64,000 bases of DNA. It comes from Vulcanimicrobiota bacterium (lineage in GTDB: Bacteria > Vulcanimicrobiota > Vulcanimicrobiia > Vulcanimicrobiales > Vulcanimicrobiaceae). Below, one piece after another: positions 3,684 through 14,848 of the stretch. The position numbers and the translations under genes are program-made. Location of the stretch: contig CAVZQC010000003.1 of the NCBI GenBank assembly GCA_963777315.1, positions 44,344-108,343 of the forward strand, written 5' to 3'. Position 1 is the first letter of the stretch. Each line of letters starts with the position of its first letter. The notes beneath the pieces were generated by a model. That model had not been told where the DNA came from. It saw only the letters and a list, made by a program, of their open reading frames with translations, and made no database searches.

Positions 3684-4886
3684 TCAAGGCTTTCCGCGCT
3701 TCTTCGTGTGCCACCAAGTCCAGGATGGCCTTCGGCGCGTTTTGCGCAAAGCGGGCTGGGCCGCCGAAGGGGCGACCGGAGCAGGGCGAAAGTTCATGAT
3801 GACGACGCGAAGTATACCGGCCACCGGCACCGCGAGCAGAAGGCCCGGAATACCGGCCAGCTCACCGCCTGCGAGCAAGGCGAGCACGACCGCAAGCGGC
3901 GTCAACTCGACGCTCTTGCTGACGACGTTGGGAGCGATAATGTGGCCTTCGAGCTGATTTATCACAACGATTCCCAACGTGACGAACAGCGCATTTTCTA
4001 CGCCGTTTGTGAATAGAGCGATGAAGAAGGCCGGGAGCCAACCGGCAATCGCGCCGATGTAGGGAATGACGTCAAGAACGCCGGCAACGGCGCCGATAAG
4101 TGCCGCATATTGCACGTGCAATCCCAGCAGCAGGAGCGTCACGAGCGTACCAACGATCGCGGCGACGATGAGCTGCCCGCGGATAAAACCGCCGACGACG
4201 TGATCGAGATCGGCAATGATTTTCAGCGCCTTCGGCTGCGCGTTCTTGGGGACGAACCCCAGGAGGGTTCGCTTGAGCCCTTCAGATTCGATCATCAGAT
4301 ATGCCGCCACCACCGGAATGATGACAAACAGCGCCCCTACGGTCACGATGGAGACGAGGACGGGCAATACGGTACTGGCCACGCCGGCGCCGTATTTCGA
4401 AATGTTCAGCTCGAGCTGCGCGGGGAAATCCTTGAGGTAATCACGCAGCCCCGACGGTAGATGCTTGGTAAATGGATTGTTTGGATCGACTAGCGCGGAT
4501 TGCGCATGGTTCACCAGCCTGGGAGCATCGTGAACGAGCTGCTGCGCGTCGGCACCAAGGATCGGCGCGGCGATATAAATCCCGAACGCAATGAGCAGCG
4601 CGATCCCCAGATACACGATGGCGATGGAGACACCGAGCGGGAGCCTGCGATTCAGCCGGGTTATGAGCGGAAAGACGAGATATGCAAAAAGTACCGCGCC
4701 GATGACGACGATTGTAAAGGTGCGAACCCGCACCAAAAACTCCAGCGCCTTATAGAGAATGAAACCTGCGAGTATGGCGAGCCAGCAGATGCGCACCGCG
4801 TACAGCACGCGATCGCTGCGCTGGACGAGCCGTAGCCGCGCGGTTTCTTCCTGTTCTTGACGGCCGGGAACCGTTCCGTCCTCCAT
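3684..4886 (-). CDS. AI-2E family transporter
   Basis: Multi-TM protein with GFIRGQLIVA, IPYIGA, NQLEGHIIAP..VSKSVEL.PL and GLLLAVP motifs. Confidence 0.9.
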   Translation of the reverse strand: MEDGTVPGRQEQEETARLRLVQRSDRVLYAVRICWLAILAGFILYKALEFLVRVRTFTIVVIGAVLFAYLVFPLITRLNRRLPLGVSIAIVYLGIALLIAFGIYIAAPILGADAQQLVHDAPRLVNHAQSALVDPNNPFTKHLPSGLRDYLKDFPAQLELNISKYGAGVASTVLPVLVSIVTVGALFVIIPVVAAYLMIESEGLKRTLLGFVPKNAQPKALKIIADLDHVVGGFIRGQLIVAAIVGTLVTLLLLGLHVQYAALIGAVAGVLDVIPYIGAIAGWLPAFFIALFTNGVENALFVTLGIVVINQLEGHIIAPNVVSKSVELTPLAVVLALLAGGELAGIPGLLLAVPVAGILRVVIMNFRPAPVAPSAAQPALRKTRRRPSWTWWHTKKRGKP

Positions 4887-4966: not shown

Positions 4967-6475
4967 TCAAACGATTTTGACGCGAAATTTTGCAACCACT
5001 TTGCCGTTGACCGGCAGCGAGCCGCCGCTATAGGTAAAGGTAACCGTTCCGCCGGACTGAGCGGGCGCGCACGAGAGCGGCCCGGGCGTGGTCACGCAGG
5101 TTGCGCTCGCCGCCACGTATGCCGTGTATTGCGGGATGGGGTCGCTGATGGAAAACGACTGCAGCGCGAACGCGCGGTGATTGGTAAACGTCAGCGTGTA
5201 TTCCAGTACGTCGCCGGGCAGTCCATTCACCGTATTTCCCGGCCCGAGGGACTCGGTGATGTTCGCGACCTGTTTGACGAGATTCGCCGCGGTAAACGTC
5301 GTCGTGACCGCGTTCGAAGAAAGTGTTTGCCCACCGTACTCCGAGGGGTCGAACGGAACGCTTCCCTGCGCGGTATTGACGGCGCTGCCGCTCGAGGAGC
5401 TCGTCGAGCCGACCACGTGCAGCGTCGCCGTAGCGCCCGCGCTCAAGTTTGAAGCGGTTGCAACGACGGTTTGAGCGCTGGCAGCCGACGTTACGGCGCA
5501 AGTGCCGGCGCCGCCGGTCACCGCGCATGATGGCGGTGTGATAGACGAGATTGTGATGCTCGCAGGGATCGGGTCGGTCAGCGAGGCGCTCGCGGCGGCG
5601 AAATATCCCGTGTTCTTGAGCGCGACGTCGTAGAAGAGTGAATCGCCCGGACCGGCAGCGCCGGTGCCCGCCTTCGCGATCGTGAATGTGGCCGGTACGG
5701 ATGCGAGATCGTTGACCACGTCGCTTCCGGTCGCAATCGCGGTGTGGCTGCCGACAAGCGCGCCTGCGGTGGTGTATTCCCACAGCGTCCAAGGAGAACC
5801 GCTGCCGATTTGCTCGCAGGCGGCCAGGTCGCCGTTGGGCAAAAGCGCCGCGCCCGTAAGGCTTCCGCTGGGCCCACTGAGCGTTACGGGACCGGTGACT
5901 GCGCCGGTCGTTGCGTTGATCGTGTACAGACTGTGCGTCGCAACGACGTAAAGCGTTTCGTTGTTGGCTGCAGTCGGAGCGGCGACGATGTCGCCGTTGG
6001 TACCGATCGACGTGCTCAGCGTAAGCGTCTTTTGAACCGCGGCCGTGGATGGGTTTACCCAGGCGACGGTGTTTGCGCTGGTCATCGTCACGAGGCATCC
6101 CGCAGCGCAATACTTCGTCGTAGGATCGAACGACATGCGCGCCTCCGTACCGGACAAACCGGAGATCGATCCCACGATCGTTGCGGCACCATAGGCCGTT
6201 GCCGACGTCGGCGCGTTCGGATTGAAAGCCGCCTTGACCAGCTGCCCGGAAGCATTCGAAACGTACAGATTGCCGCTCAAGTCCTGCGCCAGATCCTGGG
6301 CGCTGGTTCCCGAAAAAATACTCCCGTACGATTGAACGACGGAGCCCGACGTGGTGTCGATGAGATAGACGCCGGCGCTGTCGCTGAGCACCATGATGGT
6401 TGCCGCGCGTCCGGCAGCCATCGCACCGATCCATCCCAGCACGGCCAGCGCCGCCGCAAGAAGATAGCGGCGCAT
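4967..6475 (-). CDS. Secreted protein: beta-propeller-like N-terminal region plus two DUF11 domains (candidate tip adhesin)
   Basis: Signal peptide MRRYLLAAALAVLGWIGAMAAGRAA; propeller-like repeats (DLAQDLSGNLYVS, LYTINATTGAVT); DUF11 motifs GPGDSLFYDVALKN..LTDPIP and LPGDVLEYTLTFTN..ISDPIP. Confidence 0.75.
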   Translation of the reverse strand: MRRYLLAAALAVLGWIGAMAAGRAATIMVLSDSAGVYLIDTTSGSVVQSYGSIFSGTSAQDLAQDLSGNLYVSNASGQLVKAAFNPNAPTSATAYGAATIVGSISGLSGTEARMSFDPTTKYCAAGCLVTMTSANTVAWVNPSTAAVQKTLTLSTSIGTNGDIVAAPTAANNETLYVVATHSLYTINATTGAVTGPVTLSGPSGSLTGAALLPNGDLAACEQIGSGSPWTLWEYTTAGALVGSHTAIATGSDVVNDLASVPATFTIAKAGTGAAGPGDSLFYDVALKNTGYFAAASASLTDPIPASITISSITPPSCAVTGGAGTCAVTSAASAQTVVATASNLSAGATATLHVVGSTSSSSGSAVNTAQGSVPFDPSEYGGQTLSSNAVTTTFTAANLVKQVANITESLGPGNTVNGLPGDVLEYTLTFTNHRAFALQSFSISDPIPQYTAYVAASATCVTTPGPLSCAPAQSGGTVTFTYSGGSLPVNGKVVAKFRVKIV

Positions 6476-9400
6476 CTACCGGCTTGCCCCCCAGCCGAAG
6501 ATGCGATCGATGAGGGTTGTGAACGTGAAATAGAATCCCTTGCGTTGCGGCTTTCCGCTCAACGTCGGATCGATGCTCCCGGAAAAATTGTATCCGGCTG
6601 CCAGACGCGCGTCGTTGCCGATTGTGTAACCCGCCTCGGCGGCCACGTCGGTCGTTTGCGCACCGGGAACGTTGGCCGCATTCAACATCCGCAGCTCAGC
6701 GCCCACGTCGAACCGCGTTCCGACGTTTTGACGGGCCCGTAGTCCGAAAAGTGAGGTGTGGGCGGCGTAATAGCCGTCTCCGTCGAGTTTCTCGGCCACT
6801 CTTCCAGCCAGTTCGAACGTATTCCATGGCCGGTACACTTCTTCGAAGGAAAGCACGTCGGTGCGCTCGGGCAGCAAGGACGAAGTTCCGGTGAGGCGCT
6901 CATAGCCGAGCAACGATACCAAGGTGTCGTTGTTCTGCGGACGATAGGCGAGCGAGATGCGGTCGTCGGCGGCGTTCGTGCCGCTTCCGGAAACCTGATT
7001 GAGCGTTCCGAGCACCGCAATATTCGGTCCGACGTGGCCGGTAAGACCTCCGCTGAACGTGGTTCCTCCCAGCGACCCGGTACGCGACTGATATGCCAGG
7101 GCCGCGCGAAAATCTTTGGAATCGGAATAGGCAACCGAGCCGCCGTAGACGGTAAATCCTGCGGCGCCCGCGCCGGACGCGTTCGCCTGCTGCATCGTGA
7201 GGTTTCCACTGAGCCGTTTACCGATGCTGAATTTTTGCGTGACGCCGAGCGCGGAGTAGATGTCAGTAGCGTTTCCGGTATCCGTAATCAGATAATCGCT
7301 CTCAACGTTCATGGCCGGGCTCATCGCGCGTTCGAAGCCGATTTGCGTCGAACGCGTTCCAAGGTTCGTCAATCCGAGCGCGCCTGCAGATTGCGCGAAC
7401 GCCGTTGCAGCAGAATCGCTGAGCAGTTGCCGCACGAACACTTTGCTGCGGTCGTCGAACGCATAACTCAATTCAGCGGAGGTTTGTGCCGGCTGCGTGG
7501 TCTGCGCGGTTGCTCCGGTCAGATCCTGATCGCGCTGAACGTTCAAGCCGACGCGCTTGCTCGGTTTCCAGTCGAAGCCGAGCTGAGCTTGCATTTGCGT
7601 GGAGCGTTGCAGCACATTCGGCTCAGGGGAGCTGCCCGTGAGCGGCGGCGATATGGTCAGTGGAACGTTTTGCTGCGCGTGCGCCTGGACGCCGAACAGC
7701 AGCGAAATCGTTTTGTTCACCGCTGTATTCCACAGCAGGCTCGCGTTGTTTTGCGCGTCTTCAACGCCCGCTCCATGATTGCGCTGGCCATCGGCTTCGA
7801 GCGTCAACGTCTGGCCGGGCGCTGCATGACGAGACCACGCAACGCGATAATTGGTAAAGCCCGGCGAGGATATCCCGCCGAACGGGTCGGCGAAACCGGC
7901 TGCGGTGTCTTGATACAGCGCGTCGATTTGATTGGGGCCAATGCGGTCGTTCAAGGTGAGATCGATCGCGTTGCCGCCGCCCCCGCTCGAAAGTTGACCC
8001 CCCGTAACGCCGGGCGCCGACCCCGAACTCGACGCGTGTGAAAGTATCCACTGGCCGCCCGGAAGCTTTCCGGTTAATGATTGCGAGACCAAGGAGAAGT
8101 TCGATGCTCCGGTGGCATCGTTGACGTAGGAAACGCGCAGTTTGGCTGCCGCTGAGCCGCCGATATCGACCCATGCGTTGCCTCCGGTTACTGCCGAATG
8201 CGTGGCGATTCCTTGATACTGATACTGCAGCTGCAGCACCTGAGGATTGAAATAGGGGTCGAACGGCAGCGGAACGTTGATGAAACGCAGCGTTCCGGTT
8301 GCATAATCTATCGTGTAATCGACGTTTCGAATCAACGGCGTTTGCGAGATGACGGCGCCGGTTCGCCGGTCTATCGACGCAAGGGTGATGTAATCGGATC
8401 CGACGACGATGTCGGGCTGCAGCGGCTGCGCAAGCGTCAAAAGGCCGCTCACGGGAATGGTCGTCGAGACGTACGCCACTTGATTGCGCGCCGTGAACGC
8501 GTTCACATGAATGTGAGAATCCTTGTTCGCCAACTCGACTTTTGCACCCGAGAGCAACTGTCGATACGCGCCAACCGCGTTGTCATCGCCGGCGGTTGCT
8601 TGAAATTGTCCCCACATGATACTGTCGCGTCCGCTGTCGAGGCGTGCGTACAACCGATCGTTGGACTCAAAATCGGAAGATCGCGTCGAGGAATCTCCAT
8701 AGGTTTGATACGGGCGTTCGTTCGGATCGTCCACGAAGGGACCATACGAAGAGAGCGGGGCAAGCGTGTTCTGCGACTCGTACGCAACGGTCAGCAGAGA
8801 CTGTTTGCCGACGCGGCCGCTGGCAAACAGTGCAGCGCGTGCCCGGCGCGCGCTGCCGCCGTCGTCTACGCCATCGCCGTCGACCGCAATCGGCACGGCT
8901 CCGGCGCCTACGCTGACCAGTCCGTTGACCAGCGGTTTACGCAGATAGGGCGCGACGTACAGCGTTTGTGCAGACGTGAGTTCGCCCGCCGCGATTTGCA
9001 GCGTGATGTCGCCGGCCGTCAGCCCGGGAACGATGGGAATGCCGACATGCCCTCCGAGGCCGAGCTGCGCGGTGAAAACCGCGTTTTCGCTGCCGGGCGA
9101 GGCTGTGGGCGCCGGCGACGCGCCGGTGGTCGCCGACGGTAAGCCGGCGGATGCAAAGCGCGCATCGCCGCGCATGAGCGTGACCTTCACTGGGACTCCC
9201 GCCATCGCGGGATCCCCCCAGCGGTCCGTCGCGGAAACATCGAGCAATACGGCGCTTCGGCCGTCGGCCACGAGCGTGCCTTGCAACTGGGTGCGCAGCG
9301 TTGCGGGAGGCCCGCAACCGTAGATTAACGCCGTTGCCGAAGCTCCGCGCAACCCTGCTGCGCCTATCGGGGTGGCGACGAGCTCATTTGGGCCGGGCTT

Positions 9401-9805
9401 GAGGACGACGCCGAAATATTCGAACTGCGCCGTTCCCCCTTTGGCCGAAGCGGTACGGCGTCCGATGCGGGTAAGCGGCACGAGTTCGCCGTTCACGCGC
9501 AGCTCCACGCCGGCGCCGTACACCGTGTCGACGACGACTCGCGTTGCAACTGAAGGCGATACCGTTTTGTCGGACGGAAAAGCGAACGATGCCGTCAGCG
9601 GGCCGGTCGCGGTGTACGATTCATGCGCAAGATCCGCGTACTTGATCGAATTCGGCGACTCGGACGGTGCCGGGCTCGGGCTGGAGATCGGCGCGGCAAC
9701 GTCGTCGCCGGTGGCCCCCGATCGCGTCGCCGCCGCGCAGATCAACGAAATGGCAATCATCATGGCGCCGATTCGGCGAAGCGCATGTGCGATGGCGATT
9801 GTCAT
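6476..9805 (-). CDS. Large outer-membrane protein: Ig-like periplasmic domains plus a long amphipathic beta-strand region (putative beta-barrel translocon)
   Basis: Signal peptide after ATG 9805, which forms an ATGA overlap with the upstream stop. LVADGRS..L.V.ATD.WG (Big_1/invasin-like), LIRNVDYTIDYATGTLRF, and many alternating-pattern strands ending GFYFTFTTL. Confidence 0.7.
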   Translation of the reverse strand: MTIAIAHALRRIGAMMIAISLICAAATRSGATGDDVAAPISSPSPAPSESPNSIKYADLAHESYTATGPLTASFAFPSDKTVSPSVATRVVVDTVYGAGVELRVNGELVPLTRIGRRTASAKGGTAQFEYFGVVLKPGPNELVATPIGAAGLRGASATALIYGCGPPATLRTQLQGTLVADGRSAVLLDVSATDRWGDPAMAGVPVKVTLMRGDARFASAGLPSATTGASPAPTASPGSENAVFTAQLGLGGHVGIPIVPGLTAGDITLQIAAGELTSAQTLYVAPYLRKPLVNGLVSVGAGAVPIAVDGDGVDDGGSARRARAALFASGRVGKQSLLTVAYESQNTLAPLSSYGPFVDDPNERPYQTYGDSSTRSSDFESNDRLYARLDSGRDSIMWGQFQATAGDDNAVGAYRQLLSGAKVELANKDSHIHVNAFTARNQVAYVSTTIPVSGLLTLAQPLQPDIVVGSDYITLASIDRRTGAVISQTPLIRNVDYTIDYATGTLRFINVPLPFDPYFNPQVLQLQYQYQGIATHSAVTGGNAWVDIGGSAAAKLRVSYVNDATGASNFSLVSQSLTGKLPGGQWILSHASSSGSAPGVTGGQLSSGGGGNAIDLTLNDRIGPNQIDALYQDTAAGFADPFGGISSPGFTNYRVAWSRHAAPGQTLTLEADGQRNHGAGVEDAQNNASLLWNTAVNKTISLLFGVQAHAQQNVPLTISPPLTGSSPEPNVLQRSTQMQAQLGFDWKPSKRVGLNVQRDQDLTGATAQTTQPAQTSAELSYAFDDRSKVFVRQLLSDSAATAFAQSAGALGLTNLGTRSTQIGFERAMSPAMNVESDYLITDTGNATDIYSALGVTQKFSIGKRLSGNLTMQQANASGAGAAGFTVYGGSVAYSDSKDFRAALAYQSRTGSLGGTTFSGGLTGHVGPNIAVLGTLNQVSGSGTNAADDRISLAYRPQNNDTLVSLLGYERLTGTSSLLPERTDVLSFEEVYRPWNTFELAGRVAEKLDGDGYYAAHTSLFGLRARQNVGTRFDVGAELRMLNAANVPGAQTTDVAAEAGYTIGNDARLAAGYNFSGSIDPTLSGKPQRKGFYFTFTTLIDRIFGWGASR

Positions 9806-11973
9806 CGTGTATCCTGCAGAGCGAAGTTGACGTCTTCCATGAGGCCGTCGTCGAAGAGTCCGTGCACCAAACGCTGCATCGACCACGTGCTGTTCATGCG
9901 CGCGTTCGAGAAGGGACGAACGGTCTGCGGAATCGTCGCCGGATCCACGCGTAGCACGTGCATCCCGGGCCTCACGGCCGCGAACGAGTAGCGTCCGTTC
10001 TGATCCGTAAGGACGGAGCTCCCGTCCTCCAGAAAGATACGCACGCCCGCAATGCCCTCATCGCCTGTGCTGAACCGTCCGGTGCGATGCACGTCCAGAA
10101 ACACGCGGCCCGTGATCACGCCGCGCTGCGAGAACGCTCCGGCGACCACGCGTACGTCGGCAGTTGCGCCGGCCGTCGCCGAAACGGCGGTTCCCGGAAT
10201 CTTCGCTGAAGCGGTCACCGTGTTGACGAGCGTCGTTCCGGCCACCGCTGATGGAAAAACGAGGGCGGCGTAGACGATGTCGTGCGTCGTCGAGGGAGGT
10301 AACGCCGGAACGTTCCAGGTCAGAACGCGCCCGTTTACCGAAGGTTCCAGCGGCGTTGAGTCCATGCGCGCCGTGCCGGGTGCGTACGATTCGCCCGGCG
10401 GAAGCACGTCCGCTACTTGCGTTTCACCGAGTCCGGATTGCGATGGATTCCCGAATTGGATCGTGTAGATCAGCCGATCTCCGGGCTGCGCGACCGGCTT
10501 ATCCACCGCTTTGCTCACCGAGATCGATCGCGCGGTGAACAGCGGGACGTTTCCGAACAATCCGAACACGTTGGCAAGCGTTACGTTGGCGGAAGTCAGC
10601 ACAAAACCACCTGCTTGCGCCAGCGGCTGACCGTCCAGCGACGAAGCCGTGACGTCGTACAGCATCTTGCCGGCATCGAGTTTTATAATCAGACCGATCT
10701 TGCGGTTCATGAATCCCGGAGCGGTAATCGTCAGGAAAAACTGCGATCCCCCGGGCGCAATCATGCTCGGCGCGACCGCGAAGGAATACGCGCCGTTCGC
10801 GCCGGTGGTGAACGGATTCTGCGTGTTCGCCGTATCGACGGGCGGCACGCCGCTCATATTCACCGGTTTACCGTTTGCATCCAATAGCGTGACGACTGCT
10901 GCGCCCACCGGGCGATCGGCATTTGAAGGATCGAAAACGAGGTTTGCAGTCCCGATCAGCACGCTCGCAGGCGTCGTATTGGTGGCGGATACGCCGTCGG
11001 CCGCCACTTGCGCAACGTTGGTGAAGGTCGCACCGGTCGTCGAATTGGCCAGAACCGAGGCAGTAAAGGAGACGTCGAACGTCGCCCCGGCCGCAACCGA
11101 AGGAATGCGGACCGACAGCGTCCGACCGGAAAGCGTCGCAGCCGAACCCGCCGGCGACCCGTCGAGCAGCACCGACGAAAGATTCGCTTGCAATCCGGCC
11201 GGAACAACATCGGTGACCACCACGTTCGTCGCTGCCGCTTCGCCCGAGTTCTTCGCGCGAATGTCGAACGTGACGTCGGCGCCGGGGTTGGACTGTACGA
11301 TCAGCTGCTGATCGACCGTTTTCGATATCTGCGTCGCAGGGCCGCCGATCCCGGTGAATTGCGGACCTTGCGCTGCCAAGGCCCATTGCATGCCGGTGTC
11401 GCTTTGCAATCCGTTGGAGGTACCTGCGACCGTGGTTTGCGCCGTAATGGAAAGCGGAAACGCCGTTCTAAGCGCGATGCCGCCCGTTGAAACGACGATC
11501 TGCAACTCAATGGAGTCACCCGGCGGGACGCTGGGCGAAACCGTCGATCCAATCGTCGCGGGATACGATGCGCCGCCTGCGACGAACGCCGCGGAGAGCA
11601 GCTTACCGGGACCGGTGCTTGCGGTCTGGATCGTGTACGCGTCGGTGACGTTGCTGACGTTCGTGATTGTGAACGCGCGCGTCACGTTCGATCCGGCGGC
11701 GTAGGCGTCGGTCGCCGGATCGACTTTCGATTCCTTCGGCGTGACGGTGAGCGCTCCGACCGGCGCGTACGTTGTAATCACCGGGTTCGAATCGGCAACA
11801 TAACTCTGCCCCGAACCGTCTTCATATGTGGCGGTCGCGGTGTTCTGCACTTTGGAGCCTGCCGGAGTCGCGGTAATCATCGGCCTGAAAGGCGCCGCCT
11901 GCAGCAGTCCCGGTGCGAGCGCAGCCAGCGCGAACACGGGGAGAATCTGCCGAACAACGCGTGCGATGTTCAC
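9802..11973 (-). CDS. Secreted protein with two complete DUF11 domains and a C-terminal SdrD-B-like domain
   Basis: Signal peptide; [96 protein letters not shown]. Confidence 0.8.
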
Positions 11974-11997: not shown

Positions 11998-14331
11998 TTA
12001 TTTCGCGATCACCGCGAAGTACAGGATGCCGCCGACCTGTGGCGTCAGCACGAACGTACCGCCGCCGACTTGATCCATGAACGCGTTGGATGCGACCGCG
12101 TTGCCGTTGTCGTTGGGCGTGCTGGATCCGCCGACGACCGCGTACGTCGAGCCCGTGGTGTTGTCGCCGCAGGTTCCCGCAACGTTGCCGCACTGATTGG
12201 TTACCGCAGCACCCGAGGTGAGCGCTTCCTTCAATCCACCCGAATACGTGGCCCAGGTATTCGTGCCGGCGCCGCCGTCTTCGGTGATTTTTAGCGTTCC
12301 CGCGACCATCGCGAGGGCAACGTTTCCTGCTCCACTGACCGTGCTTACCGGAAGCGTATTGAGATAGGCGACTTTGTATTGGATTACGCCGGCCGGACAA
12401 ACGCCGTTCGCCGGAACGGAAGCACCCGCGGGACACCCGGTTGAGAGCACGGTTGCGGTTTTTTGCAGCGAGATGAAGCCGCCCGGCATGAGCACGTGAT
12501 AGGTCGAGTTACTGTACGATCCGGATGCTTGTGAGGTCGCGAGCACCTGAACGTATATTGGATTGAAGTCCGTCGGCGCGTTTGCTCCGCTTGCGCTGCT
12601 GTATTTCACGCAGTACGGCGCGGTCGCGCTCGCCGAAACGGAGATCTGATAGTTGCCTGAGCCGTCTTTGGTAGCCAGATTCGTGCAGTTATAGTCCGTG
12701 TACACGCCGGTCACCGTGACGGCCGCCGGCAGGCTCGGAAACGTAAAGGAGTACGTGTCGTTGCCGCTCGACGTATTCTGAAGATCGCCTGGAACGTTGA
12801 GCACCGTGCCGCCGGGGAGCTGGGCGCCGAACGTGCCGTTGGATCCCAGACTCGCTTGCGTGAAATCGGTGTTGGTAGTGTTGCTGCCGCAGGTCGCGGT
12901 GTTGTAGCAGCCGGAAGCGCCGGCGGCGCCTTTCGGGCCGTTGAGCACACCGGGAACGTTGCTGGTCGTAGTATTCGACAGGCCGTTGGCCGCAGGATTT
13001 CCGCTCGCGGCATTATACGCGGTCGATGGATCGGCGGTACCGTTATTGGGAACCGTTCCCGGCGCGATGCCCGGACCTTCTACAAAGCCCGCGTTGTCCG
13101 CGTATGCCGTGACCGCGACGTTCTTGATCGCATTTCCGGGCGGCAAGTTGGTGAGCGTGAGCGTAAACTCCAGTTCCGCTTGCGCGTTGCTGACGTTGCC
13201 TGCACTCGACCCCGACGACCCGACCGGAATCGCCCCGGTACCGGTGATGTAAACACCCACAAAGTACGCGGTGCCGGCGGATGGAGCGGTGGTCGTCCAG
13301 CCGGATTTTCCCGTGTTGTCCGTGGTGTAGACGATCGTTGCGGTGTCGCCCGCGATGCTGATGTTCTTGGTGATGCTGGCGCTCGAAACGGTAAGCGGCA
13401 CGCCGCCGTTTTGCGGAATCTTGTCGGTGACCAGGATGCCGTTGTTGGTTGCGCTGAGCGCCGAGCCGGTAATCGTCGTACCGCTTTGGCGAATCGACTG
13501 CAGCAACTGCGCGGGCGCAGCGCCGCCGTTGTTCACGTCGATCGTGTAGGTGAGGGTATTGCCCGAAACGACGCCGGCGGTTTTCTGCAAATCCAAGCGT
13601 GCGTCGGCGACGACCGTATCGCCGTACGTGTTCGATACCGCATTGGACGTCGAAGCGCCGTAATTCGAACCGGTCCCCGGATAAGTGATCGTCGCACCGG
13701 CAACCGTAGTGCCCACGGTGCCGGATCCCGCCGTTGTGACTTTATATTGAATCGCCACGTTGATGAACGCGCCTGCTGGCAGGCCGTAGACGTTCGTGTT
13801 TGCGGCCGTCGAAAGATACGTATTGGCTGCGGCGACCGTCGCGAACGTATGCGGCACGCCGTCCGTACCGGTGACGATGACGTTTTGGAACGTACCGGGT
13901 CCGCTGACCGTCGACGTGCCGGCGCCGAGCTGAAAGTAGCCGCTGGAATTTCCGGTGTTCGTCAGCGTGTAAATGTCGTTGATGACGTTGCCGTACACAA
14001 TGGGACCGGCCGGCACGTTTTGATTTTGCGTGGTCGAACCCGGCGCAGTTCCGTTGTTCGTCGTGATCACCAGCGAAGGCGCGTTCTGGACGAACGTCTG
14101 GACTTGATTGGACGTCGAGCTGTAGGTGTTCGTGCCGTCGCTGTATGATGCGCTGGCGGTGTTGTTGATCGCGGTACCCGGCGCGGTGGAGGATGTCGGC
14201 GTTGGCATCGGCGTGTAGATTGGCGGCGGCGTGGCGGCAATGGCGGGTGAAACGCCGATTCTCACCGCCGCAAGAGCCAGCCCACAGGCCAGAACGAAAA
14301 GCAGGGCCAGCAGGCCGCGCGAAGTCTTCAC
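11998..14331 (-). CDS. Large secreted Thr/Gly/Asn-rich DUF11-containing protein (candidate major fibre subunit)
   Basis: GTG 14331 preceded by GAGGA; signal peptide; N-terminal PGTAINNTASASY; internal LQKTA..LTYTIDVNN..VTDKIP..IKNVA; C-terminal LQKTA..GVIQYKVAYLN..ILYFAVIAK. Confidence 0.75.
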   Translation of the reverse strand: MKTSRGLLALLFVLACGLALAAVRIGVSPAIAATPPPIYTPMPTPTSSTAPGTAINNTASASYSDGTNTYSSTSNQVQTFVQNAPSLVITTNNGTAPGSTTQNQNVPAGPIVYGNVINDIYTLTNTGNSSGYFQLGAGTSTVSGPGTFQNVIVTGTDGVPHTFATVAAANTYLSTAANTNVYGLPAGAFINVAIQYKVTTAGSGTVGTTVAGATITYPGTGSNYGASTSNAVSNTYGDTVVADARLDLQKTAGVVSGNTLTYTIDVNNGGAAPAQLLQSIRQSGTTITGSALSATNNGILVTDKIPQNGGVPLTVSSASITKNISIAGDTATIVYTTDNTGKSGWTTTAPSAGTAYFVGVYITGTGAIPVGSSGSSAGNVSNAQAELEFTLTLTNLPPGNAIKNVAVTAYADNAGFVEGPGIAPGTVPNNGTADPSTAYNAASGNPAANGLSNTTTSNVPGVLNGPKGAAGASGCYNTATCGSNTTNTDFTQASLGSNGTFGAQLPGGTVLNVPGDLQNTSSGNDTYSFTFPSLPAAVTVTGVYTDYNCTNLATKDGSGNYQISVSASATAPYCVKYSSASGANAPTDFNPIYVQVLATSQASGSYSNSTYHVLMPGGFISLQKTATVLSTGCPAGASVPANGVCPAGVIQYKVAYLNTLPVSTVSGAGNVALAMVAGTLKITEDGGAGTNTWATYSGGLKEALTSGAAVTNQCGNVAGTCGDNTTGSTYAVVGGSSTPNDNGNAVASNAFMDQVGGGTFVLTPQVGGILYFAVIAK

Positions 14332-14344
14332 TGATGTTCCTCGA

Positions 14345-14848
14345 TTACGGCTTTTTGGCGGCGGGATGTCCGTTGACGCGCACTTCATAGCTGAACGTCT
14401 GCGTCTTATGCGGTGCAAGTGCCCGTGGCGCGATCCAGCGCACGGCCTTGTACAACGCCGGGTCGGCGGCTTTCACGAGCGTTCTTCGCGGCGTCTTCAC
14501 CGAAAAGGCCGGCCGGGCGGACCAGCTCTTCCCATCCAGCGTGTATTGGACGGCGGCATCGTCGCCGCGCGCAGACTGCAGAACGTATGAAGTTGCTTGG
14601 GGGATGGGGCCGACCGGAACGAGTTTGAACGCGGGAGAGGTTCCTACGTTCGTCGCGACGATCGTGTAGCGAACGAGATCGCCGGCCTTGAGCGTCAGCC
14701 CTTGCACGGGCGTTTGTTTGATTTGACCGTTGCTATGCTGCACAAGCACGCCGCTCAAATGCAGTTTCACCGCGGGTGCCGCCGCGGCTGCCGCCGAGCA
14801 GCACGCAAAAATCGCGCCCAACAGTAAAGGCGCGCGCAGAACTCTCAT
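14345..14848 (-). CDS. Small secreted single-DUF11-like domain protein
   Basis: GGGAGG RBS before ATG 14848; signal peptide; AGDLVRYTIVATNVG..GPIPQATSYV..YTLDGKSWS..VRW..FSYEVRV. Confidence 0.8.
   Translation of the reverse strand: MRVLRAPLLLGAIFACCSAAAAAAPAVKLHLSGVLVQHSNGQIKQTPVQGLTLKAGDLVRYTIVATNVGTSPAFKLVPVGPIPQATSYVLQSARGDDAAVQYTLDGKSWSARPAFSVKTPRRTLVKAADPALYKAVRWIAPRALAPHKTQTFSYEVRVNGHPAAKKP

Follow-up and report, generated by a model that had tools for sequence, protein, structure and literature searches.

How is a protein completed that appears to carry the last strands of an immunoglobulin (Ig)-like domain at its mature N-terminus and to end in a domain from which these same strands are missing? 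The protein in question, 777 amino acids (aa) long, is encoded on the minus strand of a 64,000-nucleotide stretch of a Vulcanimicrobiota genome (contig CAVZQC010000003.1, positions 44,344 to 108,343, assembly GCA_963777315.1), the whole of which is called the window here; the source genome has 2.83 Mb and is 89.9% complete. Its gene is the second in a row of five tightly packed genes, all on the minus strand, whose products have 176, 777, 723, 1109 and 502 aa. Computation established that the two ends of the 777-aa protein are truncated in a complementary manner, that this truncation, its key residues and the gene order are conserved in related genomes, and that the two pieces co-fold with a high score. 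With moderate confidence, we read the five genes as encoding a surface fibre built on a split CLIPPER/DUF11 (CnaA-like) domain, in which a hairpin would join the subunits in trans and a Lys-Asn isopeptide bond would probably lock them.

The two ends of the 777-aa protein

Conservation in the 777-aa family was read from an alignment of 114 homologues, and gene content was compared in 73 related loci, nearly all of them titled Eremiobacterota or Vulcanimicrobiota. The initial annotation had described an orphan last strand near the mature N-terminus of the 777-aa protein. Its position was right (residues 51-63, PGTAINNTASASY, 14143-14181), and the element is a hairpin unit of four strands, not a single strand. 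In the AlphaFold2 (AF2) model of the protein, which has a mean predicted local distance difference test score (pLDDT) of 85.4 and a predicted template modelling score (pTM) of 0.68, with pLDDT below 50 at residues 1-6 and 18-39, the hairpin consists of four short strands (54-57, 60-64, 69-73 and 77-80) at pLDDT 87-93. T49, I55, N57, D65, S74, N75, V81 and N83 are invariant, and a conserved linker of 3-4 residues (Q82, N83, A84, P85) leads from the hairpin into the first domain. Two Asn residues of the hairpin, N57 (codon 14161-14163) and N75 (14107-14109), are candidates for an isopeptide bond. The mature N-terminus starts 2-4 residues ahead of the hairpin in most homologues; the protein of the window and a few of its nearest relatives have an extra stretch of about 15 residues, rich in Pro and Thr, before it.

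At the opposite end of the chain, we could confirm the earlier description of a domain that carries the Lys of LQKTA and the acid of ITEDG and stops before an Asn strand. The Lys is K624 (codon 12460-12462), the acid is E684 (12280-12282), and the protein ends in LYFAVIAK followed by the stop codon. K624, G686, W693 and G699 are invariant and E684 is kept in at least 90% of the homologues. C633 is also kept in at least 90% of them, and C645 lies 12 residues further on, in an insertion that separates the Lys strand from the following one (around residues 632-643, window 12403-12438); from the sequence, the two cysteines may form a disulphide-stapled loop beside the proposed reaction site. The abrupt end is a property of the family, as 59 of the 60 homologues found in the loci end at most 3 residues from an F-x-V-x-V strand and the exception is a contig end. 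A profile of these 60 C-terminal domains, searched against 1.84 billion representative proteins, gave 429 matches at an expect value (E) of up to 0.001. Among the best 150 of the 429, 132 extend to the end of the profile, and the protein end follows within 3 residues in 127 of them, within 4-10 in 4 and after 15 in 1; in none of the 132 is there room for the missing hairpin after the open domain. The remaining 18 of the best 150 are fragments or long multi-repeat proteins that match the short core only.

Then, what would the complete domain look like? The operon itself holds four complete copies, and all four Lys/Asp/Asn sets named in the initial annotation are present. They are LQKTA/TDKIP/IKNVA in an internal domain of the 777-aa protein, ISKTV/TDVVP/FTNVA and VSKAV/ADVLP/LVNTV in the 723-aa protein, and IAKAG/TDPIP/AVNTA in the 502-aa protein. 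Among 58 homologues of the 723-aa protein, none departs from D255 or N319, and at least 90% keep K218, K488, D522 and N584. This protein matches Pfam DUF11 (E 4.1e-19) and TIGR04226, the RrgB isopeptide domain (45.7 bits, cut-off 30). The internal domain of the 777-aa protein, compared by VIA-align over the model range 245-460, resembles BcpA (Z 9.3, root-mean-square deviation 2.9, 127 residues aligned), SpaD (Z 9.2) and Cna (Z 8.0). When Foldseek and VIA were run on the whole 777-aa model, residues 82-618 were well covered and the C-terminal domain barely so.

The two truncated ends map onto the complete domains side by side. Aligned by hhalign, the C-terminal domain of the 777-aa protein covers positions 7-101 of the 133 of a complete CLIPPER domain (probability 35.5%, E 3.9e-4), with K624 aligned to the ISKTV Lys and E684 to the TDVVP Asp, and positions 3-91 of the 121 of a second one. 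The hairpin profile covers positions 102-126 of 133 (E 0.068) and 93-114 of 121 (E 0.032) and puts N57 on the canonical Asn, at a distance from the hairpin end that agrees with the spacing of the CLIPPER triad. All three members of the Lys/acid/Asn triad are thus matched, by K624, E684 and N57, with the Asn at the other end of the chain. The open last domain of the 502-aa protein provides a bridge. The C-terminal domain of the 777-aa protein aligns with it at a probability of 91.5% (E 8.5e-7) and shares its end column, and the 502-aa open domain aligns with the two complete CLIPPER domains of the 723-aa protein at 97.0% and 97.7% (E 7.9e-11 and 1.8e-12), again ending at 101/133 and 91/121; because of this bridge the C-terminal domain is regarded as homologous to CLIPPER. 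Against PF01345, for which the Pfam cut-off is 24.6 bits, the 723-aa protein passes (69.4 bits), but neither the 502-aa open domain (19.9 bits) nor the 176-aa protein (21.7-22.5 bits) does; the NCBIfam model TIGR01451 is above its cut-off for the 723-, 502- and 176-aa proteins, and neither Pfam nor NCBIfam gave a match in the 777-aa protein. The profile alignments support the view that the C-terminal domain is a CLIPPER/DUF11-like domain that ends exactly where the N-terminal hairpin would start. The DUF11 assignment made in the initial annotation thus stands by profile-profile comparison and not by Pfam.

The two pieces, residues 600-777 and residues 44-96, were also co-folded, each with its own supplied alignment. 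The interaction prediction score from aligned errors (ipSAE) was 0.82 (0.82, 0.80 and 0.86 in three runs), and the best of 3 controls reached 0.00. The pass mark that we used is met by 116 of 157 solved complexes and by 2 of 215 mismatched pairs, and is roughly applicable here given the supplied alignments. At least 88% of the contacts were common to the runs, and the partner pLDDT was at least 69. The domain had a pLDDT of 82-84 with the hairpin and of 52-56 with unrelated partners; likewise, that of the hairpin was 70-74 when it was paired with the domain and 32 when the partner was an unrelated chain. In the co-fold, strand 59-63 is paired with strand 680-683, and hairpin residues 49, 53-66, 70-82 and 84 form the interface. 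K624 is in contact with S74, N75 and V77, and N57 with Y652, N691 and W693. N75 is invariant in donor hairpins whereas the equivalent position of the complete domains is variable (consensus of the 58 homologues of the 723-aa protein). N57 and N75 are both candidates for the reacting Asn.

Proposed donors and acceptors across the operon

The second hairpin of the operon belongs to the 723-aa protein, in which the hairpin is followed by two complete CLIPPER domains and, at the C-terminus, by an SdrD_B/CarboxypepD_reg-like domain, and which has no open domain (mean pLDDT of its AF2 model 90.5). The hairpin profiles of the 777 and 723 families align with a probability of 98.9% (E 1.5e-17). For the survey of the 73 loci, hidden Markov models (HMMs) took the place of a regular expression that was too strict and recognised 59 of the 73 proteins in the 777 class and 17 of the 65 in the 723 class. 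With the HMMs, 67 open reading frames (ORFs) in the 777 class were matched, along with 65 in the 723 class and one fragment, always at the N-terminus save for one weak internal stretch (E 0.017), and no other protein class in these loci was matched. In the source genome, the 777- and 723-aa proteins were the only matches even at E up to 10.

The product of the fifth gene is an acceptor without a donor hairpin. Here it has 502 aa; its N-terminal domain, of unknown fold, is followed by one complete CLIPPER domain and the open last domain. From 49 candidate ORFs in the loci, 27 fifth-gene products were chosen for ending right after the F-x-V-x-V strand, so that this end is theirs by selection; most of the 27 have the Lys and the acid in register, and the hairpin HMM matched none of them. 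The gene is variable, its product being either 502-like or a protein of 810-990 aa with a last domain like that of the 777-aa protein, and this variability fits a tip adhesin. At least two classes can be told apart, one of about 500-760 aa, whose open domain is of the canonical DUF11-like kind, and one of 810-990 aa, whose open domain is 777-like and contains a Cys pair, and their N-terminal parts are unrelated (examples are L009:17806-20259, L006:17991-20867 and L061:17704-19242).

The 176-aa protein is a small secreted CLIPPER-like domain that likewise ends right after an F/Y-x-V-x-V strand, and 60 of its 71 homologues end exactly there. It aligns with the complete CLIPPER domains at probabilities of 95.4% and 95.9% (E 2e-8 and 5e-9), ending at 103/133 and 92/121, and has no match to the hairpin HMM. 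The Lys position is occupied by K in 38 of the 71 family members, and the acid position by G in 51 and by D or E in 11; the protein of the window has H47 and G89 at these positions. These residues suggest an acceptor that works non-covalently, possibly as a 'reverse chaperone'. The operon therefore counts two donors and three acceptors, one of the acceptors being bond-incompetent by sequence.

The 1109-aa protein belongs to no known family. It has no Pfam match, no credible NCBIfam match (the best is SprA with 13.2 bits, cut-off 200) and, among the PDB sequences, a lone meaningless match at E 0.88; its nearest clusters in the ESM Atlas are nameless, and one 'outer membrane protein' cluster stands at 0.91. 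A signal peptide and a strand-like C-terminal half led us to presume an outer-membrane barrel.

The gene order is well kept. The 176-aa gene lies directly upstream of the 777-aa gene in 71 of the 73 loci, the two misses beginning at a contig edge, and the 723-aa gene directly downstream in 61. The 12 loci without the downstream 723-aa gene are accounted for by 8 contig ends, 3 split ORFs and 1 real case. This case (L050, 7104-9742) has the 176- and 777-aa genes and neither a 723- nor a 1109-aa gene within 10 kb downstream. In 56 of the 61 loci with the downstream 723-aa gene the 1109-aa gene comes next, contig ends accounting for the other 5, and all four core genes are found in 55 of 73. Parts of two sets stand in a row in another locus (L073, 690-12811), the 723-aa gene, a gene for 1136 aa and the fifth gene being followed by the 176-, 777- and 723-aa genes. 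Within the phylum, the 1109-aa protein was found in 71 of 301 sampled genomes, in 50 of the 234 genomes of high quality and in 35 of 100 genera; two unpublished genomes, G213 and G263, contribute matches to this tally. Its gene occurs in 17 of 19 genomes of one genus and in 0 of 59 of another. The patchy distribution suggests that the operon is an accessory system, gained or lost as a block.

The coordinates of the genes and of their parts are given in Table 1. The ATG of the 1109-aa gene overlaps the stop codon of the 723-aa gene (ATGA), and the ATG of the 502-aa gene immediately follows the TAG of the 1109-aa gene. The next gene downstream on the same strand (3684-4886, minus strand) is AI-2E transporter-like, with every match below the NCBIfam cut-offs, and is probably outside the operon.

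Table 1. Genes of the operon and parts of their products, in window coordinates; (-) is the minus strand
Feature	Residues	Position	Remarks
176-aa ORF		14345..14848 (-)	ORF call extends to 14875; likely start M10 at 14848
777-aa ORF (P0001)		11998..14331 (-)	second of five genes; GTG start; proposed shaft, donor and acceptor
Signal peptide of 777-aa protein	1-32	14236..14331 (-)	ends SPAIA; judged from the sequence by eye
Donor hairpin of 777-aa protein	49-81	14089..14187 (-)	from conservation, profile alignment and co-fold interface
Internal CnaA/CLIPPER-like domain of 777-aa protein	243-415	13087..13605 (-)	complete; K250, D303, N404
Acceptor C-terminal domain of 777-aa protein	612-777	12001..12498 (-)	without the Asn-bearing last strands
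723-aa ORF		9802..11973 (-)	proposed terminator/anchor, donor-only
Hairpin of 723-aa protein	36-68	11770-11868 (-)	directly after signal peptide
1109-aa ORF		6476..9805 (-)	presumed outer-membrane barrel/assembly platform, family-less
502-aa ORF		4967..6475 (-)	fifth gene; proposed tip, acceptor-only
Open last domain of 502-aa protein	391-502	4970-5305 (-)	LVKQVA Lys, ISDPIP Asp, end AKFRVKIV

Alternative explanations and a proposed assembly

Does the hairpin really insert into another chain, and is the joint covalent? The initial annotation had proposed head-to-tail donor-strand polymerisation through a split domain and had suggested predicting the complex of peptide and domain. The complementary truncation, the conservation of Lys, acid and Asn and the co-folding of the pieces (ipSAE 0.82 against 0.00) speak for this reading; as to the triad geometry that it had expected, the pair K624-N57 is absent among the 25 contact pairs listed for the co-fold. 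This absence is one of several points that weigh against a split-domain fibre. The direct profile statistics are weak (35.5% for the domain, E 0.068 and 0.032 for the hairpin), and a Pfam search with the isolated C-terminal domain and the hairpin gave 0 families, even with E relaxed to 10. Among proteins of 1361-3885 aa, a search with residues 560-777 detected no fused, unsplit relative at E up to 0.001, which is a weak negative. The co-fold may pass simply from the likeness of the joined pieces to solved intact CnaA/CLIPPER domains, and the model is compatible with insertion in cis as well as in trans. The orphan hairpin of the 723-aa protein was modelled at a pLDDT of about 87 with no acceptor in its own chain, and the barrel assignment of the 1109-aa protein is a presumption.

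Other explanations were considered. The pieces could belong to ordinary tandem-Ig adhesins that are exported singly; the hairpin would then be part of the N-terminal domain, the C-terminal one would be an Ig variant that is shorter but complete, and their match would be a modelling artefact. Such a view is in line with the lack of a Pfam DUF11 match in either piece and with the weak statistics of the hairpin profile; we take it to be very unlikely in view of the 0.00 of the three controls, the domain pLDDT of 52-56 without the hairpin, the truncation of four protein families at the same column and the terminal position of the open domain in 127 of the 132 full-reach matches among the best 150. 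A single giant adhesin gene, split by frameshifts or assembly errors, would account for the order 176, 777, 723, in which an open end is followed by the missing strands. All the genes, however, possess a start codon and a hydrophobic signal peptide of their own, and the boundaries are the same in the 55 loci with all four core genes, across many genera, so this explanation can hardly be true and was rejected.

Two further alternatives accept the split domain. In one of them, the hairpin and the C-terminal domain of a single chain pair with each other, which would give a closed, possibly self-locked monomeric adhesin. The pTM of 0.68 of the monomer and the pLDDT of 87-93 of its hairpin would fit docking within the chain, and the co-fold is equally consistent with it. 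We had thought of hairpin pLDDT as a discriminator between cis and trans and dropped it, because the 723-aa hairpin was expected to be disordered and was modelled with a similar score; high confidence in the hairpin of the monomer is thus uninformative on docking. Closure in cis is, in our judgement, distinctly unlikely, since the homologous hairpin of the 723-aa protein comes without an open domain, the open domains of the fifth-gene and 176-aa proteins come without a hairpin, and the short linker to the first domain would force the whole multi-domain chain into a ring. The unmatched halves, donor-only in the 723-aa protein and acceptor-only in the 502- and 176-aa proteins, lack a partner in their own chain and are the best argument for joining between chains. 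The second of these alternatives grants a fibre joined by donor strands in trans and takes the joint to be non-covalent, as in chaperone-usher pili, with Lys, Glu and Asn merely shaping the core. The contact list, in which the pair K624-N57 is missing, would agree with this; so would the 176-aa family, which keeps its open fold without the acid and often without the Lys, so that complementation appears independent of the triad. We nevertheless consider it unlikely, given that K624 and N57 are invariant, and E684 nearly so, at the very positions of the triad in complete domains, and that the bond of complete CLIPPER domains has been solved crystallographically (PDB 9IFR; PMC12617251, in its available part).

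The split of the domain and the fit of its pieces have good computational support. Assembly in trans is the most economical reading of the operon, and a covalent lock is plausible. How such a fibre might be put together, we infer as follows for the joining in trans, the bond, the order of subunits, their location at the membrane and the role of the 176-aa protein. The fifth-gene product would form the distal tip, which accepts only and starts the fibre. The 777-aa protein would polymerise into the shaft, the hairpin of each subunit entering the open C-terminal domain of the one before it (donor-strand complementation). K624 would then attack N57 (or N75) with the assistance of E684, and the resulting isopeptide bond would probably be self-catalysed. 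The 723-aa protein, which donates only, would halt growth as a terminator and stay with the presumed outer-membrane protein of 1109 aa. The open domain of the 176-aa protein would probably bind hairpins in a reversible, non-covalent way, as a cap in the periplasm or else as another kind of end piece. The initial annotation had expected such a fibre to be sortase-free and its host to be a diderm, and both expectations are supported. The sortase family PF04203 had 0 matches in the source genome, at its completeness of 89.9%, and the control genomes were positive. The cultured member of the phylum to which the source organism belongs, the Eremiobacterota, has an envelope of the usual Gram-negative type, outer membrane included (PMC9758169).

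A broader idea, which we offer tentatively as possible though not probable, is that the operon represents a separate, widespread class of pilus in diderms that works without sortase, adenosine triphosphate or a classical chaperone-usher pair. A natural split isopeptide domain would join the subunits, the irreversible bond would drive an ordered outward growth through the dedicated giant outer-membrane protein, and the 176-aa protein, as the 'reverse chaperone', would keep donor hairpins waiting in the periplasm.

Relation to known fibres and significance

The published systems closest to the proposed fibre are compared here as the available parts of their reports describe them. The CLIPPER domain of 9IFR has the triad Lys715/Asp748/Asn806, ends at residue 828 and forms its bond within the chain (PMC12617251). 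It shares with the DUF11 domains of the operon a CnaA-like Ig fold, a Lys in the first strand, an Asp in the middle and an Asn about 22 residues before the end; the operon has four complete copies of this triad, and the split copy retains all three positions. There, the bond is intramolecular, the only kind described for CLIPPER domains, and the domain is one of those in a single-chain fibrillar adhesin (PMC12617251), whereas in the operon the Asn strands lie at the other end of the polypeptide, Glu replaces Asp and the open domain of the shaft is not detected by Pfam. For BsaA of Clostridium perfringens a 'donor strand exchange and lock' has been proposed and is backed by mutagenesis (PMC11580942). 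The N-terminal segment of BsaA enters the sheet of the next monomer, an Asn-Lys isopeptide bond forms with a Glu of the recipient as catalyst, and sortase is not needed, all of which is akin to our proposal. BsaA differs in its TasA-like fold, its monoderm host and its single small subunit, whose secretion involves type IV pilus genes and SipW, and, unlike the operon, the system as described has no outer-membrane component and no set of tip and terminator (PMC11580942). The archaeal thread of Saci_0406 combines donor-strand complementation with an unusual isopeptide bond (PMC9715654); it is likewise assembled head to tail, sortase-free and with a proposed intermolecular isopeptide bond. The bond there connects Asn57 of subunit n and the alpha-amino group on Asp24 of subunit n+2, the host is archaeal and the CLIPPER triad is absent from the system as described (PMC9715654). 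When the profile built from the 114 homologues in the 777-aa family was compared with every chain sequence of the PDB, TasA/BsaA and the thread subunits included, it gave 0 matches at E up to 1 in this comparison of sequences only. Two other candidates were set aside as different systems, namely the 6,596-aa single-chain DUF11 grappling-hook protein (bioRxiv 10.1101/2025.08.19.671072) and the haloarchaeal tafi with DUF1102 proteins (PMC11821415).

In chaperone-usher pili, incomplete Ig folds are filled by the N-terminal extension of the next subunit (PMC11821415, PMC9715654). The likeness to the proposed fibre extends to the set of parts, with a tip adhesin that can only accept, a shaft that polymerises, a terminator that can only donate and an assembly protein in the outer membrane. 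The donor-only terminator of P pili is PapH. The operon differs in that its donor is a hairpin of four strands rather than one strand, its joint is probably covalent and its small accessory protein resembles an acceptor rather than a donor of strands. Neither an usher (PF00577) nor a PapD-like chaperone was found in a Pfam scan of four operon proteins or, for the 502-aa protein, in NCBIfam and a Pfam scan of its last domain. The only usher match of the source genome is to PF00577 (87.1 bits, above cut-off) and lies outside the window at contig C2:386243-387673. The organism probably has an ordinary chaperone-usher system as well, separate from the operon; as the classical usher is on another contig, the operon is not that system. 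The CnaA-type domains of the sortase pilins BcpA, SpaA, SpaD and GBS80 match the internal domain of the shaft (Z 8.2-9.4), but the shaft ends in FAVIAK and has no LPXTG, the genome has no sortase match and the host is a diderm. The chemistry proposed for the operon is the same as that of SpyTag/SpyCatcher, a man-made split isopeptide domain that re-forms its bond in trans; this pair is artificial and SpyCatcher comes from a CnaB domain.

A full-text search of the literature, with supplements outside its scope, found no split CLIPPER domain and no such operon in diderm bacteria. Covalent pili are a textbook feature of Gram-positive bacteria and depend on sortase; the pili of diderm bacteria are, to our knowledge, held together non-covalently. 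The principle of donor-strand exchange and lock is already known, and an operon with a split CLIPPER domain in diderms would be a new form of it. If our reading is true, diderm bacteria would possess a self-ligating fibre with its own family-less outer-membrane component, and the operon would supply natural tag/catcher pairs, both covalent and non-covalent, for protein engineering. It would also give a function to hundreds of 'hypothetical' proteins of an abundant soil phylum with few cultured members.

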